64,000 nt of DNA from Candidatus Latescibacterota bacterium. GTDB taxonomy: Bacteria; Latescibacterota; UBA2968; UBA8231. The translations under genes and the position numbers were made by a program. The number at the start of each line of letters is the position of its first letter. Position 1 is the stretch's first letter. Below the pieces are notes generated by a model. It was not told where the DNA came from. It saw only the letters and a list, made by a program, of their open reading frames with translations, and searched no databases. Shown one piece after another: positions 30,965 to 40,703 of this stretch. Location of the stretch: NCBI GenBank assembly GCA_963422735.1, contig OY730476.1, forward strand, positions 3,968,001-4,032,000. Reading direction: 5' to 3'.

Positions 30965-32068
30965 GGGCGTCTCCGAAAAGGGTGCGCTGGCTCTGGAGTT
31001 GGCCACGAATGAGGTCTTCTTTAAGTATAGGTCAACGCTGTGAAGGAAACGACAAAATCGCGCTGCTCGCGCCGGCGCATGGCAAAGCCGGCGGCAATGG
31101 AACACAGAGGATTGCCGTCCGGTGCAGCGCCTTGTTAGGGTGCATCATACGGGCCGAGAAACCGTTCGCCGTCAAAGTGGATCAAATGTGATGGAGCGTC
31201 GGCAACCCACACCTCGGTCTCCCAAGCAATTTCACCGAGGTAGCGGGCCATGACGGCGCGATTGAGAAAAGCAGTTACATAGACCAAGCCAGCCTTTGCG
31301 CCCGCAAACAATTCGGTCCGTTCGGCATGCCGTTTCCCATCAACCGGCCCATGACTGGTTACCGATTCCACCAATAGCAGCCACTTCTTCTCCAAGTAAT
31401 GCAAAAACGTCTGGCATCTTGCCGTGAGTGTCCACATTGACGCCGAGCTCGGCTAGCAGTGCTTCGTCAAAGTAGCCCCACTTATCGCCTGTGTCCCCGG
31501 CATAGACCAGCACACTGCCGGGTGCAAAGCGCGGAGTAAAATCCTCAATGATCGACCTGATCAGTCCGCTGTGCTCGCCGGGGCTGAGCGCAATTTGCTT
31601 GCCCGGCGCGGGCTGCACTGGGATGCGATTCTGTTGGCGTTCCTTTGCATAACGGGCGGTGAGAGTTCCGCGCTCGGCCAAGTAGGCCGTCAGATTGTCG
31701 CGCCATGCCAGCGTAGCAAAACTGCGAAGCAGAGTCAGCGCACTAGGCTCAATCTGATAGACGGCCATAGGGCTATTTACCGGTCGATCTGGCTTATCTG
31801 GATTGTACAGCGCAATACCGGCATTGACGAATTGGTGCATCGTCTGGCGACGCACTGTTTCGCGGGTGTTTGGCGCATAGTCCTTGTCGTAGTTTCCCGC
31901 GCCCAATCCATGATAGGCGTGATGCCCATAAGCGGAGCTTCAGCCTCGGCCCATGCCTCGCCAGGTACGAGGTTCAGCAGTGCCAGCAGGCAAAAGGCGG
32001 AACGCTCGTTTTGTTGCGCTCGTGGTAGGCCAAGGGAAACGATGATTTGCTATGCGGCCTTTAAGTAA

Positions 32069-32300
32069 CGGACTTTCCTAGAATAAGGACTGTTTAATCC
32101 GTGGTCCGTGGTCCGTGGTCCGTGGTCCGTGGTCCGTGGTCCGTGGTCCGTCCCATCCGCCGCCTTGGCGACGGGTACCCGGCGCCTGGCCTCGGAACAT
32201 CGACGCGGGGACCGCGCTGGCCCGGACGAGGGCTACGGGCAGGCCGAGTGATACCGCCTACATGAAACCGGAATCCCCAACCGTACACTAGGAAATTCTG
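32069..32300. mobile_element. MITE-like non-autonomous insertion, 232 bp
   Basis: Flanked by exact TTAAGTAA direct repeats (32061-68 and 32301-08); terminal IRs CGGACTTTCCTAGAATAAGG vs CAGAATTTCCTAGTGTACGG (15/20); excision restores the REase frame. Confidence 0.88.
32098..32151. repeat. Heptamer tandem repeat (GTGGTCC)x7 inside the MITE
   Basis: Seven perfect units at 32101-32149 plus partial flanks. Confidence 0.97.
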
Positions 32301-32321
32301 TTAAGTAATCGTTCTTATCGA

Positions 32322-33813
32322 TCATGCGGTCAGGGTTGCCAGCTTTTCATCGATCATCGCCTGCTTGAGTTCGCCTTGCTGCACAGCCCATTCGCCTAGC
32401 TCAATCAGCATATTGCGGTGTGGGTACTTCATCCGCTTGAGATCGGTTGCGTTGACCTGCGTGTGGCCGTTGAAACGTCGAAAATACTCATCGACAGCGG
32501 TGGTGTTGAGGAATACAGCCAGCCCACGGGCTAGTGCCTCGGGCAAGCCACGCTTGTTCACGTGGAATACGTTTAGGTGGTTTTCGAAACCCAGCATGGG
32601 GGCCTTGGCAAATGCGGCGGGATCAACTACGCTGGCCACGATCCGGCGCTTTTCTTTCTTCGACGAGAAGCGGCGCACCAAGCAATAAAAGCCATCGGGT
32701 AAAGCCATTTTTGGGTGTCCTTGTTGAGTTGGATGGCGTTGGGTTTCTTCGCCCCGGGTATGGGCCATGTCGTGCCGCCGCAGTGGCTAGGATACAACAG
32801 AGGCACGGTTCCTACCTCGGGCATATCGCATAGGTGCGCCTTGACCCTGAAATCGACAATGGGTCCGGTCGAAACATTGACACCGAGATCGGAGAGCAAG
32901 TGCCGAATGCGCGGGGATAGCTCAATAGCACTCTTGTCGGGCGAAGTGGGCACGTGGATGAACCGCTCCGGGTCATCGGGGAATACGATCTGATCGAAGG
33001 AGTGCTCATGGGTGGCAAAATCGGTGAAGGTGGCATCGGTTGATGTGGATACCGTTACCTCTCCCTGCCGGCCGCCGCGTTCCAGTAGGATAATGATGCT
33101 CTCCTGTAGCACATTGTCGTCCTTGAAAGCCTCGCTGCGCGACTCGAATAGGTGCAGGTGGCGGAGTGCAGATCGTTGCCGCACAAAGTCGCGGAAAGGC
33201 CGGTAATACGGCCCATTGCAGAAGCTACGCGGGATAATTGCTACAAGTTGCCCGTGGTTATCGAGCAATGATAGCGACAAGGCTACAAAGGCGGTGTACA
33301 GATTGACCGTTTCAATGCCAGCTCGTCTCAATACTGCCCGATGCTTTGAGTCGGTGCGAATCTTCTTGTAAGGGGGATTGAGGATGGCGTGGGTATATTT
33401 TGGCAGTTCTTCAGCGAAGATGCTTCCAGAAAGCCATTCAGCAGCAGCCTGTATAAAATCAGTGCTTCGAATCGTCGCGGTAAGACCTGGGTACTTCCCG
33501 TATTGTTCCAAGGTCTGAGTCAGAGATGGGCGCAGTAGTGCATCAATCTCGAAAGCATCAATTTCAACACTCATAAAGTGAAAATCACCGGAGACCCATC
33601 TATCTATCTATCTAGAAAGGCCGCAGAGAGAGAACCGCGCCCGGCGCCCGCATCGAGCAGACGGCATCTGGCACTCATCCTTTGAGCAAATAGCTTTGCC
33701 ATAAATCTAGCAATCTCGGCAGGCGTGAAAAACTGTCCTAACCGCGACTTTCTCTTTGGGTCAGCGGCGGTCTCTGGTACACTCAGTTTTGAGTGTTTAA
33801 CTTTTGCAAGCAC
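32322..33813 (-). pseudogene. BsuBI/PstI-type N6-adenine methyltransferase, disrupted
   Basis: LGQFFTP, LLDAGAGRG, NPPY, IPRSFCNGPY, STGPIVDFR, FNGHTQVNATD; broken at (TAGA)4 near 33600 and by a frameshift near 32695. Confidence 0.92.
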
Positions 33814-34694: not shown

Positions 34695-34771
34695 AGGGGT
34701 CGTCCTTTTGTTGGGGGCTAGTTGGGGTTTGGCTATTGCCTTCGCTCTGGCCATCGCCCTGGGCCGGAGGA

Positions 34772-35022
34772 TCACCGTCGCTATTCCACCGCGATGTCCG
34801 CAACGCTTTTCTGACCGGGCTTGACATGCACGGGGCACGTGGCACCTCCCGGCTTGCCTCTGTTCCGGCATTTGCCAGCCGCTCTTCCAACAAAAGGGGC
34901 GGCAGCAGCACGAGGCAGGCGATGGGCTTCCCCCTCGAAGTTACGAAGACCGTCTCTCCCCGCTGGACTTGCCGAAAGTAGCGCGACAACCTGCTCTTCA
35001 GGTCGCGTGCGGATGCGTTTAT
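34772..35022 (-). pseudogene. Phd/YefM antitoxin remnant, with only a stub of the downstream toxin
   Basis: AGGAGA RBS then ATA instead of ATG; ARDLKSRLSRYFRQVQRGETVFVTSRGKPIA; frameshifted tail KSVADIAVE*RR* overlapping GTG-ATC-CTC. Confidence 0.7.
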
Positions 35023-35205
35023 TGCGATCTCCTTGTAACTACATTTTGAGCTAAGGGTAGCCGCATTGGATTCTCGCGGCAAGCCCGGCGATCACTCGCC
35101 CGTAGCCAAGCCCACACTACCCAAGCCCATTCTTGACATTGTTCAATCGGCCGGGGAACTTGAATTCCAAGTTGATCCCTTTGACATTCTCGACTAGGAA
35201 AGACG

Positions 35206-37731
35206 ATGCATAGATATGCCGCGGTGCTGGCTGCCGCTCTCCTCATCTCCAAGGCAGCCGCAGCCGGAGCCGATGAACAACCCTCCCGTACCGACACCAG
35301 CGAGGCCCAGATGCAGTTTTGGATGGCGCACCCCCAGCGCACCGCCCGCGCCGTGCGGGCTGAGGTGCCGCCGCGTCTCGACGGCGTCATCGACGACGAA
35401 ATCTGGCTGCGCGCCCCTCTGCACGAGGGGTTCACGCAGAACGACCCGGACAACGGCGAGCCTTCGACGCAACGCACCACCTTTCAGGTGGCCTACGACG
35501 ACGATGCGCTCTACATCGCCGGCATCTGCTACGACACCCGCCCCGACAGCATCACCGCGCGTCTGGCGCGGCGCGACGAATGGCGTGAGCGCGACCTGCT
35601 CGAGATCAACCTCGACCCCCACCACGACCATCAGACGGGCGTGTACTTCACCGTGGGTCCCTCCGGCTGGATCGAGGACGGGATCATCTACAACGACGAC
35701 GACTTCGACGATAGCTGGGACAGCGTGGCCGAGGTAAAGACGGCTCGACGCGCTGACGGCTGGAGCCTAGAGCTGAAGATCCCTTACCACGTCCTGCGCT
35801 TCGGCGAAAAGGAGAGCTACACTTGGGGGATCAACGTCTCTCGCAAGATCTCCCGCCGCGCCGAGTGGTCGCAGTGGAGCTTTACCCCCCGAGGAGTTAG
35901 TGGCTACGTCTCTCGCTTCGGTCATCTCGAGGGGATCGAAGGCATCCGGCCGCAGCGCAGCCTCGAGATATTTCCCTTCGCCTTGGGCCGCAGCACCCTA
36001 TCGACAGGGGACGGCGGCAGCGAGCACGACCTGTTCTCCTCGACCGGCCTCGACTTGCGCTACGGCCTGTCGTCGAATATCTCCCTCAACGCCACCATCA
36101 ACCCGGACTTCGGCCAGATCGAGGCCGATCCGGCCGTGCTCAATCTGGGTGTTTTCGAGACCTTTTTCCGCGAGCGCCGACCCTTCTTTCTGGAGGGTAT
36201 CCAGATATTCGAGTCGCCAGAGCCGAACATCGTCGGGATCCGCCGGCCCTCGCGCCTGTTCCACTCGCGGCGCATTGGCCGCCCGCCTTCGCGCTTTGAC
36301 CTGCCCGAAGACAGCGAGGAGGTGGACCGTCCCCACAACACCACGATCCTCGGTGCCGTTAAGGTCTCGGGAAAGACCGCGAAACGCACGGCCTTTGGCC
36401 TGCTCAACGCCGTCACCGGCCGGGAGGAAGCACTCATTGACCAGCGCATTGTTAGCACCGAGACAGGCCGCGTTGATACGGTGCGCCGCGATGTCGAGAT
36501 TGAGCCGATCACCAACTACTTTATCGGTCGCGTACAACAGGATCTGCTCACCAACTCCACCGCCGGAGCCCAGCTCACCGCGGTCAACGGCCGCGGCTTG
36601 GACCCAGCCTACGTCGGCGCTGGAGACCTGCACGTGAAGTGGTGGGAGAACGCCTACCGCCTCTATAGCCGGCTCGCCGTCAGCCGCGCTGGGCAGGAGG
36701 AGGAGCGCGGCACTGGCTGGGAGGGTGCGCTCTACTTTCAGAAGACGGGCGGTGCCTTCGGCGGCCAAGCGTACGTGGACGCGCAATCGCCCGAATTCCA
36801 AGCCAACGACCTAGGCTTCATGCGGCGCAACGACCGCATCCAAGCCGGTGCCCACATCTATCACGAGAAGCTCGACCCCTATTGGTTCGCCCGCCGCTCC
36901 GGGTTTAACCTCAATGTCTGGAACCACTGGAACTTCGCCGGTGAGAGGCTGTCCGAGGGCGTCAACTTCAACACCTGGCACAACCTGCACAATTACTGGG
37001 GATTCTGGATGGGCCTCAGCCACAACTTCGCTGCCTTCGACGACCTAGCCACTCGCGGCGGACCGCTGATGCGCTCGCCCGCCCACACTTGGTTTGGCAT
37101 GGACGTGTGGACCGACGACCGCAAGCCCATCAGTGCCTGGCTCGGCTGGAACGTCAGCGGGAGCCGGGGGGGCGACAACCTCGGATCTTGGGTCGGCTTT
37201 GAGATCGAGCTGCGGCCCGTCTCCCAGCTCGAGTTGGAAATTGAGCCGGGCTACAACTTCAACCGCAACTTCGCCCAGTGGGTGGATAACGAGGACGAGG
37301 ATGGCGACGGCGAGGACGACCGCTTCATCTTCGGCGAGCTTGAAAGCCGCGTCTTCGAGCTCGGCGTGCGCGGCACCTGGGCTTTCACCCCTAGCCTGAG
37401 CCTGCAGCTATTCGCGCAGCCCTTCGTGACAACCGGCGACTACGGTGCTATCAAGGAATTGGCGCGCCCGCGGTCCTACGAGTTTTCTCCCTACGCCGGC
37501 CTTGAGGAAAACCCCGACTTCCGCCGCCGCGCACTGCGCTCCAACGTAGTGCTGCGCTGGGAGTACCGGCCCGGCAGTACGCTCTTCGTCGTCTGGCAGC
37601 AGAGCCGGGACCGCGCCTTCGACGACGTTCGCGACCCCAAGTTCCGCCCGGCCGGCGACTTGGGCCGCGCCTTCGCCGATGATGGCGACAATATCTTTTT
37701 AATCAAGCTCAACCGCTGGTTCGGGCTGTAG
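35206..37731 (+). CDS. Secreted/outer-membrane DUF5916 protein with an N-terminal CBM9-like domain
   Basis: Signal peptide; PRLDG, YDDDALY, WSLELKIP, NPDFGQIEAD, ERRPFFLEG, RWEYRPGS. Confidence 0.88.
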   Translation: MHRYAAVLAAALLISKAAAAGADEQPSRTDTSEAQMQFWMAHPQRTARAVRAEVPPRLDGVIDDEIWLRAPLHEGFTQNDPDNGEPSTQRTTFQVAYDDDALYIAGICYDTRPDSITARLARRDEWRERDLLEINLDPHHDHQTGVYFTVGPSGWIEDGIIYNDDDFDDSWDSVAEVKTARRADGWSLELKIPYHVLRFGEKESYTWGINVSRKISRRAEWSQWSFTPRGVSGYVSRFGHLEGIEGIRPQRSLEIFPFALGRSTLSTGDGGSEHDLFSSTGLDLRYGLSSNISLNATINPDFGQIEADPAVLNLGVFETFFRERRPFFLEGIQIFESPEPNIVGIRRPSRLFHSRRIGRPPSRFDLPEDSEEVDRPHNTTILGAVKVSGKTAKRTAFGLLNAVTGREEALIDQRIVSTETGRVDTVRRDVEIEPITNYFIGRVQQDLLTNSTAGAQLTAVNGRGLDPAYVGAGDLHVKWWENAYRLYSRLAVSRAGQEEERGTGWEGALYFQKTGGAFGGQAYVDAQSPEFQANDLGFMRRNDRIQAGAHIYHEKLDPYWFARRSGFNLNVWNHWNFAGERLSEGVNFNTWHNLHNYWGFWMGLSHNFAAFDDLATRGGPLMRSPAHTWFGMDVWTDDRKPISAWLGWNVSGSRGGDNLGSWVGFEIELRPVSQLELEIEPGYNFNRNFAQWVDNEDEDGDGEDDRFIFGELESRVFELGVRGTWAFTPSLSLQLFAQPFVTTGDYGAIKELARPRSYEFSPYAGLEENPDFRRRALRSNVVLRWEYRPGSTLFVVWQQSRDRAFDDVRDPKFRPAGDLGRAFADDGDNIFLIKLNRWFGL

Positions 37732-37751
37732 GAGCGGAAGGTGGTCAGATT

Positions 37752-37829
37752 ATGGCAGGGGAACGAAGCGAGGTTGGGCGATGTACACCTTTCCTCATAC
37801 GCACGAATAATAATCTGCTGGCCCCATAG
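37752..37829 (+). CDS. Candidate attenuator leader peptide 1 (25 aa, NNN)
   Basis: MAGERSEVGRCTPFLIRTNNNLLAP*; AAT x3 at 37806-37814; AAGGTGG upstream; followed by a terminator hairpin. Confidence 0.5.
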   Translation: MAGERSEVGRCTPFLIRTNNNLLAP

Positions 37830-37863
37830 CGCGTGTTCTGACGACTGACTCCAACTAAATTTT

Positions 37864-37906
37864 AAAACCCGTCGCGAACGCGCATCGCGGCAGGTTTTCT
37901 GTTTTT
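37864..37906 (+). terminator. Intrinsic terminator 1 in the aspS leader
   Basis: Stem AAAACCCGTCGCGA/TCGCGGCAGGTTTT (14 positions, one mismatch, one G-U), 7-nt loop, tail TTTTCTGTTTTT. Confidence 0.75.
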
Positions 37907-37919
37907 AGGAGCTATTGCA

Positions 37920-38012
37920 ATGACATTCCGACACAAGCACACGGCACGCACCTTTTCGCATAACGACAATGACAATAATCCCGCCATGCAGACTCGATGG
38001 CGTTGGCCGTGA
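37920..38012 (+). CDS. Attenuator leader peptide 2 (30 aa, NDNDNN)
   Basis: AGGAG RBS at 37907-11; MTFRHKHTARTFSHNDNDNNPAMQTRWRWP*; six consecutive Asn/Asp codons at 37962-37979. Confidence 0.82.
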   Translation: MTFRHKHTARTFSHNDNDNNPAMQTRWRWP

Positions 38013-38032
38013 TCGGATTCTACCTTCACCCC

Positions 38033-38071
38033 AACCCGCTGTCGCGCCTCGCGCCGATGGCGGGTTTTTTT
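38033..38071 (+). terminator. Attenuator terminator 2 upstream of aspS
   Basis: 12-bp stem AACCCGCTGTCG/CGATGGCGGGTT with a T7 tail, ending 29 nt before the aspS ATG. Confidence 0.9.
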
Positions 38072-38100
38072 ATGTCCATCTGACAACCTAGAGGCTACCC

Positions 38101-39861
38101 ATGCACCGCTATCGCACCCATACCTGTGGCGAACTCCGCAAGCACCACGCCGGCCAAACCATTCGCCTGAGCGGCTGGATCCACGGCCGCAGGGACCACG
38201 GAGGCATATTGTTCCTCGACCTGCGCGATCACTACGGCATTACCCAGCTCGTGATCTCGCCGGAGAATGACGCTGTGGCAACCGCAGCAAAGGTCCTCCG
38301 CGAGTCCGTAGTCCGCGTCGTAGGCAACGTGTGCGCCCGGTCGCCTGCGACCATCAATAGCGCGATGGAGACTGGAGAGGTGGAAATCGCCGTCCGCGAG
38401 CTAGAAGTGCTCTCGCCAGCCGCGCCGCTCCCTTTTTCCGTGGCGGAAGACTCCGAAGTAGGGGAAAGCACCCGGTTGTCCTATCGCTTCCTGGACCTGC
38501 GCCGGGCCGGGCTGCACCGCCGCATTCAGCTCCGCTCGGAAGTGATCGCCAGCATCAGACGGCGCATGACAAAGATGGGCTTTGCCGAGTTCCAGACGCC
38601 TATTCTCACCAGCAGCTCGCCCGAGGGTGCGCGAGATTACCTCGTGCCGAGTCGGTTATATCCCGGCCGGTTCTACGCGCTGCCACAGGCACCGCAGCAG
38701 TTCAAGCAGTTGCTGATGGTGTCCGGCTTCGATCGCTACTTCCAGATCGCGCCCTGCTTTCGCGACGAAGACGCCCGCGCCGACCGCTCCCCCGGCGAAT
38801 TCTATCAACTCGATCTCGAAATGGCCTTCGTCGAGCAGGAGGATGTATTGGCTGTGGTCGAGGAGCTCTTTTTCGGTCTCTTTCGAGAATTCACCGATTG
38901 GGAAGTGCCCACGCCGCCGTTCCCGCGTCTTTCCCACGCCGCCGCCATGCTGCGGTTCGGTACAGACAAACCAGACCTACGCTTCGGGCTCGAAATCCAG
39001 GACCTCTCCGAGATCTTTGCAGGCTCCTCGTTTAGGCTGTTCAGAGACATCGTCGCAGCAGGAGAGGTCGTCCGCGCCCTGTGCGTTCCCGGACTGGAGG
39101 GGCAGCCGCGCTCGTTTTTCGACAGCCTCGAAGCGTTCGTCAAAGAAGCAGGCGGCAAGGGGCTGGCGCACCTCATCAACGGAGCGCAGGCCACAGGCTC
39201 AATCGCCGCAGCTCTAGAACAGAGCGTGCGTAGCCGCATTATCGAGGAATGTGCAGCCGCTCCGGGATCAGCCATTTTCTTCATCGCCGGACCACCAGCC
39301 GAGGCAGCGGCCCTAGCGGGACGGTTGCGCCTGCATCTGGCAGACCGGCTCGATTTGCGTCGCGAGGGTTGCTATGAATTCTGCTGGGTCGTCGATTTTC
39401 CCATGTACGAATGGGACGCGGAACGCGCTTGTGCCGCCTTTTCGCACAACCCGTTCTCCATGCCGCAGGGGGGCATGACTGCTCTGGAAGGCCAGCCGCC
39501 GCTGGATATCAAGGCGTATCAGTACGACATCGTCTGCAATGGCCTCGAACTGTCGAGCGGTGCCATCCGCAATCACAGACCGGACATCATGTACAAGGCG
39601 TTTGAGATTGCCGGGCACTCGCGCCGGGAAGTGGATCGCAGGTTCGGGGGCATGATCCGCGCCTTTCGCTACGGCACTCCGCCCCATGGCGGCATCGCGC
39701 CTGGCATCGACCGCATCGTCATGCTGCTAGCGGACGAACCGAACATACGAGAAGTCATCGCCTTCCCGATGAACCAAAATGCGCAAGATCCGCTCATGGG
39801 CGCGCCGGGCGAGGTGTCGCCTGAGCAGTTGCGGGAGCTACACATCGCAATCCGGGAGTGA
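38101..39861 (+). CDS. aspS: Aspartate-tRNA ligase, probably non-discriminating (Asp/Asn)
   Basis: YRTHTCGEL, RRDHGG, PEGARDY, QIAPCFRDED, EFYQLD, HNPFSMP, PPHGGIAPGIDR. Confidence 0.97.
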   Translation: MHRYRTHTCGELRKHHAGQTIRLSGWIHGRRDHGGILFLDLRDHYGITQLVISPENDAVATAAKVLRESVVRVVGNVCARSPATINSAMETGEVEIAVRELEVLSPAAPLPFSVAEDSEVGESTRLSYRFLDLRRAGLHRRIQLRSEVIASIRRRMTKMGFAEFQTPILTSSSPEGARDYLVPSRLYPGRFYALPQAPQQFKQLLMVSGFDRYFQIAPCFRDEDARADRSPGEFYQLDLEMAFVEQEDVLAVVEELFFGLFREFTDWEVPTPPFPRLSHAAAMLRFGTDKPDLRFGLEIQDLSEIFAGSSFRLFRDIVAAGEVVRALCVPGLEGQPRSFFDSLEAFVKEAGGKGLAHLINGAQATGSIAAALEQSVRSRIIEECAAAPGSAIFFIAGPPAEAAALAGRLRLHLADRLDLRREGCYEFCWVVDFPMYEWDAERACAAFSHNPFSMPQGGMTALEGQPPLDIKAYQYDIVCNGLELSSGAIRNHRPDIMYKAFEIAGHSRREVDRRFGGMIRAFRYGTPPHGGIAPGIDRIVMLLADEPNIREVIAFPMNQNAQDPLMGAPGEVSPEQLRELHIAIRE

Positions 39862-40003
39862 AAGACGCTTTCGGGTGCTTTGGTGCGACCACTTTACTTC
39901 CTCGCGGTGATCCGCGGCGCTTTCTGGCCATTTTTATCAAGAGGGTTCTTGACGCTTTGGGTTCACAATTCTATAGATGGAATGCTACGAAAGGGGAGTA
40001 TAT

Positions 40004-40222: not shown

Positions 40223-40703
40223 CCCATGACTGCCCAACCATCGAGGAAGTCGTCGCCATGCACCACGCCCTGATTAGTGCTTTGGCGGCTCACTAGGCAT
40301 CCGCGATGAAGGTGCCCTCGCCTCCGCACTCAGGCACCCCCAGCTTGGATACTACGACGGGCTCATTCAAGAAGCGGCTGCCCTTATGGAGAGCCTAGCC
40401 AACAATCATGCATTCGTGGACGGGAATAAGCGGGTCGCCTTTTTCGTCACCGACACCTTTCTGCGCATGGACGGCCGCTTCATCAACTGCGACAACGATG
40501 AGGCATACGCCTTCTTCATGCGTTCGTTCCGATTCACCGAATTGAAAAGGTCGAACCCCTCTCGGGGTCTTGACAGCCTACGGACAGGAGCGCGGATAAG
40601 CCATTTTCCCACACCCATAAAAAAGTCGCTGAACTATTGCGACTGTTCTACTTCCCAAACGCGGCATTGGCGTCGTAAGGGCCCGTCAGAAGCTCCCTAC
40701 TGA
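40219..40703 (+). pseudogene. Fic/Doc family toxin, frameshifted
   Basis: MTHDCPTIEEVVAMHHALI, frameshift near 40280, then FGGSLGIRDEGALASAL...NHAFVDGNKR; the C-terminus also looks eroded. Confidence 0.85.

Follow-up and report, generated by a model that had tools for sequence, protein, structure and literature searches.

A pair of predicted asparagine-codon leader-peptide attenuators before an accessory aspS gene in Latescibacterota, with an altered first unit in one genome

Classical leader-peptide attenuators (trp, his, leu, thr and the pheST type) combine a leader with cognate codons, a protector helix (1:2), an antiterminator (2:3) and a terminator (3:4), and stand before a gene in the pathway of the amino acid concerned. 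The locus described here shares these traits in its predicted form, but differs in having Asn/Asp codons, two units in series and, in relatives, a first leader that is probably leaderless, while the copy in our window has lost the predicted protector and the likely promoter. The classical mechanism is summarised in the attenuation passages of PMC2659441 and in section 11 of PMC3641672. According to the accessible part of PMC3641672, Salmonella mgtCBR also carries two short ORFs (mgtM and mgtP), each with alternative stem-loops; it senses ATP and Pro-tRNA additively, and its hairpins are unlike intrinsic terminators. By contrast, both units here have intrinsic terminators and the Asn signal is common to them, and the locus is not of the mgtCBR type. 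The available account of the mycobacterial polycysteine attenuators (bioRxiv 10.1101/834739) describes leaderless short ORFs with a run of one amino acid, which is what we infer for the first unit of the relatives; there a stalled ribosome frees a downstream ribosome-binding site, whereas here it would block an intrinsic terminator. An extra AspRS is linked to GatCAB-dependent Asn synthesis in Deinococcus-Thermus, as it may be here (PMC4206432, accessible part), but that enzyme is archaeal-type, whereas the aspS2 product here is bacterial-type with a GAD domain.

A Shewanella aspS leader RNA that appears in the accessible part of PMC2659441 has no Asn peptide, and the accessible part of PMC4833913 mentions neither Asn nor Asp. 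We found no description in the open-access literature of an Asn-codon leader-peptide attenuator, nor of two same-signal leader-peptide terminators in series. Reportedly, tRNA-dependent Asn synthesis in Clostridium acetobutylicum is under T-box control. By contrast, an Rfam scan of positions 36000-40000 showed no T-box or other cis-element at the aspS2 locus here, and two sub-threshold, unrelated matches elsewhere in that interval.

The window is the whole stretch of 64,000 nucleotides that was analysed. The parts of the locus are as follows.

35206..37731, + strand: DUF5916 gene with CBM9-like domain (Pfam PF19313, E 2.7e-73)
37732..37802, + strand: decayed cassette flank and old unit-1 promoter, homologous to the counterpart in genome G059
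37738..37746, + strand: strong Shine-Dalgarno-like site, 6 nt 5' of ATG 37752
37752..37829, + strand: putative chimeric leader ORF MAGERSEVGRCTPFLIRTNNNLLAP*, with a new start and an early TAG
37775..37780, + strand: relic -35 box TGGGCG (TTGACG in G059), from the alignment to G059
37781..37810, + strand: alternative small ORF MYTFPHTHE*, lying in the former promoter spacer, with no counterpart in G059
37798..37801, + strand: bases 1-4 of the former -10 box, at the deletion edge, from the alignment to G059
37806..37814, + strand: three Asn codons AAT AAT AAT (NNN), the remaining sensor run
37829..37843, + strand: antiterminator strand (segment 2), including the ancestral TGA stop 37839-41
37864..37906, + strand: terminator 1 (segments 3:4 with the U tract); G>A at 37892 makes it weaker
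37907..37911, + strand: Shine-Dalgarno site of leader 2, abutting the terminator 1 U tract
37920..38012, + strand: leader 2 ORF MTFRHKHTARTFSHNDNDNNPAMQTRWRWP*, intact, with an Asn/Asp run; found in 14 of 31 genus genomes
38033..38073, + strand: terminator 2 (-23.6 kcal/mol, z -4.10, 0 of 200 shuffles)
38101..39861, + strand: aspS2, the second, accessory aspS (NCBIfam PRK00476 and TIGR00459 over cut-off)

A sequence-only reading had reported a small ORF with AAT AAT AAT near its stop, a terminator behind it and an antiterminator pairing with the 5' arm and loop of that terminator, and all three were present. The ORF ends at TAG 37827-29, 37829-43 pairs with 37870-84 over 13 bp (-17.4 to -18 kcal/mol), and the terminator 1 hairpin proper spans 37864-98, with T runs to 37906. 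Taken alone, this hairpin was only moderately unusual (z -1.94, with 7 of 200 shuffles equally good). Three of 1230 terminator-like sites genome-wide had an Asn-rich small ORF upstream, and two of the three are units 1 and 2.

The surroundings hold several other elements. The 3' end of the DUF5916 gene contains a small hairpin resembling a terminator (37673-37700), which scored at chance level in shuffles. Before that gene, 35130-35190 contains two TTGACA hexamers and a near-palindrome (about 35157-73), possibly a promoter and operator that would drive read-through. The locus is flanked by a Phd/YefM-like antitoxin ORF (34738-35082, - strand) and a Doc-like ORF (40386-40703, + strand), both below curated cut-offs; the antitoxin start adjoins the unit-1 promoter in six relatives without DUF5916 at that place. 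Overlapping ORF pairs at 31135-33574 (- strand) resemble, by eye, a split methyltransferase and restriction enzyme.

The unit pair among relatives

Close matches to aspS2 were present in 21 of the 31 genus genomes, with none in the other 10. Unit 1 occurred in 20 of the 31 and unit 2 in 14, each in single copy and always directly before aspS2; the loci with unit 1 comprised 14 tandems and six singles in which it was the sole leader of aspS2. Beyond the genus, tandems were found in three other genera (G059, G061 and the strongly diverged G081, where the antiterminator sequence is another one and pairing is still possible), single unit-1 types in G062, G090, G083, G088, G053, G047 and G091, and a differently built single Asn-run unit in G073-G077 (genus g19). 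Covariance model R1, which missed the most diverged units, matched 28 of 132 class genomes, all from one family. The two serial Asn leader-peptide attenuators suggested by the sequence-only reading are thus a conserved arrangement (14 of the 20 unit-1 genus genomes and the three tandems beyond the genus). Judged by its sequence, unit 1 belongs to a conserved pair of Asn-codon leaders before an accessory aspS and is the first of the two.

Of the 19 genus loci that include upstream DNA, 11 had the DUF5916 3' end before unit 1. Upstream neighbours varied (DUF5916, antitoxin, soxR and others), while aspS2 stayed attached. Single-unit loci are joined in one of two ways, through the pair of GGAG sites or through the pair of terminator 3' arms, and these shapes look like repeated deletion of unit 2. 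That the tandem is ancestral is drawn from distribution and junction shapes only; the trees, which had weak internal support and left out G043, G044, G026 aspS1 and partial proteins, are too weak to establish the order. Among individual loci, G091 (L195, G091:C1:3148790-3149100) kept unit 1 before a 5'-truncated aspS2, G021 had aspS2 fragments only (G021:C1:4024545-4025211), and G050 had an aspS2-like gene without a recognisable unit. The aspS2 of G059 (L190, genus g13) grouped inside genus g1 with 91% identity, a hint of cassette movement between genera.

The native promoter of unit 1 had the form TTGAC(G/A)-16/17 nt-TAnnnT in 18 of the 20 relatives listed; it was missing in G006 and displaced in G012. 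About 8 nt separated TAnnnT from the ATG, with no Shine-Dalgarno site, so a leaderless transcript is suggested and leader 1 of the relatives is probably leaderless. This leader reads MMTRQNDRxQNNNNPLxPLRVF* or a longer form (20-30 codons, Asn-rich) and stops at a TGA matching window positions 37839-41. Asn-rich leaders were found in all 19 genus loci with the full leader 1 region and in other genera, with a sensor run of 2-4 Asn and further Asn/Asp upstream. The leader 1 lengths (63, 66, 69 or 87 nt) were multiples of three in 24 of 24, and the spacer behind it (25 to 34 nt) was not frame-constrained.

The protector 1:2, formed by codons 4-6 and the stop region, had P 0.83-0.99 in 20 of 20 relatives and was 96.1% paired. 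The antiterminator 2:3 helix was 98.5% paired in the 20 relatives with one compensatory change, and the terminator 3:4 helix 99.5%. Covariation in the 2:3 helix was weak (42 of 500 shuffles); further compensation was seen in G053, and G081 and G047 pair through another sequence. Terminator 1 of the relatives ranged from -19.0 to -21.9 kcal/mol (n = 20), with a terminator probability of at least 0.93 for naked RNA. Under equilibrium folding, neither the g19 leaders nor unit 2 at the stop behaved as a clean switch. As far as sequence can test, the relatives show every feature of a leader-peptide attenuator. The unit pair would be expected to work like the classical kind, with the protector missing from the window copy.

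Other arrangements occur within the family. In G075 (L199), G074 (L200) and G077 (L201), the upstream gene (lysS-like by eye) is extended in frame at its C-terminus by the Asn run, which lies about 200-430 nt before aspS and is followed by a terminator and aspS. Such an attenuator would be fed by ribosomes finishing the full-length upstream gene. The run is a separate ORF in G073 and G076. The end of leader 2, R-x-R-[WF]-R-[WV]-P-stop (window 37995-38012), was found even in the diverged G081 (L205, 350 nt before aspS), and could reflect an RNA constraint or a peptide-level arrest motif.

The altered first unit of this genome

Comparison of orthologous leaders, as the sequence-only reading had proposed, showed the tandem to be conserved but the ORF 37752-37829 not to be the native leader. 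It is chimeric, with promoter-region DNA joined to the 3' half of the native leader. Homology to the genus form begins near 37803, an edge on which the contig of run X6 agrees (80 other letters replace 73). The DNA before this edge, 37732-37802, was identical at 44 of 66 aligned positions to the unit-1 promoter region of G059 and DNA upstream of it, differing at about a third, and none of 20000 shuffles or 19997 random genome windows scored as high. The homology was found by positional comparison alone; none of the 25 other upstream regions compared matched, and BLAST searches of the own genome, genus and family for a source of 37732-37802 gave chance-level matches only. The 5' part of the homologous stretch in G059 reads as a soxR tail. 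A soxR relic was rejected for 37732-37802: 11 other soxR tails did not match (scores 28-42 versus 63), and for this reason its 5' part is treated as cassette flank. No close soxR occurs in this genome. The soxR of G059 has a replaced C-terminal tail.

Several changes separate this unit 1 from the native form. The -35 box has decayed to TGGGCG, and a deletion of about 37-58 nt, beginning inside the -10 box, has taken away the inferred start site together with the ATG and protector segment 1. The protector 1:2 had P 0.23 and is absent as a feature. A TTG has become TAG four codons before the old TGA. The G>A mismatch at 37892 was seen in this genome only (1 of the 27 sequences listed), and the window terminator 1, at -14.4 kcal/mol, is 5-7 kcal/mol weaker than those of relatives. 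The degenerating copy that had been offered as an alternative is partly borne out for this genome by the loss of promoter, start and protector. The antiterminator strand is identical to the commonest form (15 of 15), NNN is kept and 44 of 46 core bases remain. With a pairwise fourfold-site divergence of 0.19-0.21, about half of it on this lineage, and p 0.06 in Fisher's test of -35 versus core conservation, the core appears conserved only modestly above neutral expectation.

The new start, ATG 37752, lies in the NNN frame and is not conserved in relatives. Its Shine-Dalgarno pairing with the genome's own 16S 3' end reached -15.9 kcal/mol, compared with -4.2 to -6.5 kcal/mol for the flanking genes and leader 2. 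The start-site statistics are post hoc (the site was seen first) and assume that G059 resembles the ancestor: 0 of 2000 shuffles had an in-frame start as good, and neutral-decay simulations from the G059 homologue gave an in-frame ATG with a Shine-Dalgarno energy of -12 or lower in 15 of 5000, with -8 or better in 131 of 5000, and any in-frame ATG in 1103 of 5000. The alternative ATG 37781 with its GAGGT exists and opens MYTFPHTHE* out of frame, as had been noted; it is not ancestral and lies in the old promoter spacer. Fair Shine-Dalgarno starts arise by chance here, because this out-of-frame ATG also has -9.6 kcal/mol.

The resemblance between the two leaders of the window was real (p = 0.005, 5 at the 2000 scale; 12 of 1000 codon shuffles), but the duplication that it seemed to hint at did not hold. 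In relatives, what the two leaders have in common is limited to the Asn(-Pro/Asp) codon patch, and the ACCTTTCCTCATA stretch consists of old promoter sequence. None of the 15 other tandems carries the ACCTTT word in leader 2. An ancestral origin of unit 1 through duplication of leader 2 was rejected, since only the Asn patch is common to both. A gene conversion specific to the window is a possible source of the resemblance.

We checked the assembly against contigs from runs X4, X10 and X6, which belong to three separate studies, although X4 may be near the source. The X4 contig showed no difference and no gap over 37300-38600, nor did the X10 contig over 37754-37920; record 4 of X6 had one difference and no gap over 37300-37922. 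A sequencing or assembly error behind the early TAG or the frame was rejected; both are taken as real because contigs of three studies have unit 1 in the form seen in the window. The X10 contig, from a run guessed to be RNA, terminates in an A-rich, loose stretch 14 nt beyond terminator 1; this end and the missing aspS2 cover were set aside as evidence because contigs show neither ends nor levels. A metagenome pattern scan for unit 1 gave 0 matches.

Predicted behaviour of the first unit and alternative readings

We give an even chance to the reading that unit 1 of the window is a weaker, leaky Asn switch, translated from ATG 37752 on DUF5916 read-through RNA. No consensus promoter was found in 35000-37760, and transcripts would likely reach unit 1 by read-through from the DUF5916 gene. 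With ample Asn-tRNA(Asn), the first ribosome would reach TAG 37827 and cover most of 37829-43, and terminator 1 would form part of the time. With scarce Asn-tRNA(Asn), the ribosome would stall at 37806-14, 37829-43 would pair with 37870-84, and with this antiterminator formed RNA polymerase would enter unit 2, which is intact and probably the dominant Asn/Asp attenuator. A terminating ribosome covers about 12 nt downstream according to the accessible part of PMC4833913, and section 11 of PMC3641672 gives 12-15 nt; on these figures a ribosome terminating at the new TAG would still lie over segment 2.

The geometry claimed by the sequence-only reading, in which a ribosome at the stop covers segment 2 and one stalled at NNN does not, works in the folding models. 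Folding from 37752 gave a terminator probability of 0.89 with the ribosome at TAG, 0.01 at the last Asn and 0.77 with a stall at the first Asn. Folding from 37732 with a stall at the first Asn let the upstream piece re-pair with segment 2 (0.96), and termination was predicted; the outcomes therefore depend on the 5' context. An AND gate of Asn, then Asn/Asp, had also been proposed, but Asn AND (Asn or Asp) is logically Asn. Because both units respond to Asn, tighter and sharper Asn control takes the place of a two-input gate; read-through is the product of two probabilities, which would give lower basal aspS2 expression and a sharper Asn response.

It is rather unlikely that unit 1 of the window is a non-sensing relic, a fixed leaky terminator behind the DUF5916 gene that a constant fraction of transcripts would pass, leaving unit 2 alone to sense Asn/Asp. 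The decayed promoter, the deleted start and protector, the TTG>TAG change and the unique terminator mismatch all fit such a relic, as does the terminator probability of only 0.05 for naked RNA from 37752, far below that of the 20 relatives; if the early local hairpin 37732-96 persists, no more than 1.5 kcal/mol separates the antiterminator fold from the best one at 37886. Points against a relic are the strong in-frame Shine-Dalgarno site and ATG 37752, the retention of NNN and segment 2, and a new TAG that still puts the terminating ribosome on segment 2. On the other side, a live switch has only three Asn codons left, and its terminator and antiterminator could have been kept for other reasons. 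An improbable reading is that the deletion made a new promoter, TGTACA-18 nt-AATAAT (37782-811), whose transcripts from about 37818 would start behind the Asn codons, form the antiterminator by default and bypass unit 1, with AATAAT kept as a -10 box and not as codons. This is the sole + strand promoter-like match in 37200-38400 (9 of 12 matches; 2 hits versus 0.2 expected), but it has a poor -35 box and an 18 nt spacer where relatives have 16-17, NNN is inherited from the ancestral leader, and the X10 contig runs unbroken from 37754 to 37920, although X10 is only guessed to be RNA.

Full equivalence to the unit of the relatives, a tight first gate with the upstream piece as a new protector, is very improbable. 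Positions 37736-61 can pair with 37822-52, which then permits the terminator, but this pairing was at chance level (51 of 400 and 135 of 1000 shuffles), and as a new protector it was rejected on that ground; it also falls outside the footprint of the stalled ribosome, and the 5-7 kcal/mol lost from terminator 1 speaks against a tight gate. We regard it as extremely improbable that the hairpin is a mere DUF5916 terminator with NNN and the pairing present by chance. It does lie about 130 nt past the DUF5916 stop, but the unit keeps aspS2 while its upstream neighbours change, is the sole aspS2 leader in six genus genomes and keeps its frame in every case; conservation before aspS2 in relatives refutes this suggestion of the sequence-only reading as far as origin is concerned.

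Rewiring of the unit was seen elsewhere in the family, through the promoter changes in G006 and G012 and the Asn-run gene fusions in G074, G075 and G077. We tentatively extend the leaky-switch reading, at a level of belief short of even, to a family-wide two-stage Asn attenuator with a leaderless first stage that has been repeatedly re-plumbed, here by a start with a Shine-Dalgarno site born in dead promoter DNA, selected and gating read-through RNA.

The accessory AspRS and asparagine supply

The aspS2 product is 44% identical to that of the housekeeping aspS (aspS1, G000:C1:870792). Its closest titled relatives (83-93%) are from Candidatus Latescibacterota and the next (about 55-61%) mostly from Alphaproteobacteria. 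Matches over cut-off identify GatB and GlnRS in the genome, which also has an AsnRS-like protein but no AsnA and no AsnB over cut-off, and because of this combination Asn is probably made on tRNA. Its tRNA-Asn has U1-A72, which GatCAB requires according to the accessible part of PMC4206432; GatCAB serving tRNA-dependent Asn synthesis also follows the logic given there. An extra AspRS would raise the supply of Asp-tRNA(Asn) during Asn shortage. An asnB match occurred in one of the 20 unit-1 genus genomes, and G047, G053, G062, G081 and all five g19 genomes had the Asn leader together with asnB-like genes; the link between the Asn leader and a missing Asn synthetase is not tight.

We take a His and a Gly in the anticodon-binding domain to be marks of a non-discriminating AspRS; a search for a paper giving these positions found none. 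Both are present in aspS1, which looks already non-discriminating by these residues, and aspS2 has only the His, as in 4wj3 (6hhv has Leu there), with the Gly of RPEG absent. Elsewhere in the genome, an asnS-like gene (G000:C1, about 746900, - strand) has TATTAT 7 nt before its ATG and no obvious Shine-Dalgarno site, and is possibly leaderless. Trp-, Cys-, His- or Tyr-rich small ORFs before terminator-like hairpins, near 4660340 (+), 3679036 (+), 4427956 (-) and 1366406 (+) on G000:C1, are candidate attenuators.

If the pair works as predicted, it would show one way for a bacterium that lacks asparagine synthetase to meter tRNA-dependent Asn synthesis. The natural single, double and damaged versions of the locus are material for asking what a second attenuator adds, and unit 1 of the window offers a case for the loss and regain of leader peptides. 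If the tentative family-wide reading is true, it would be a leader peptide reborn from non-coding DNA, caught in the act.
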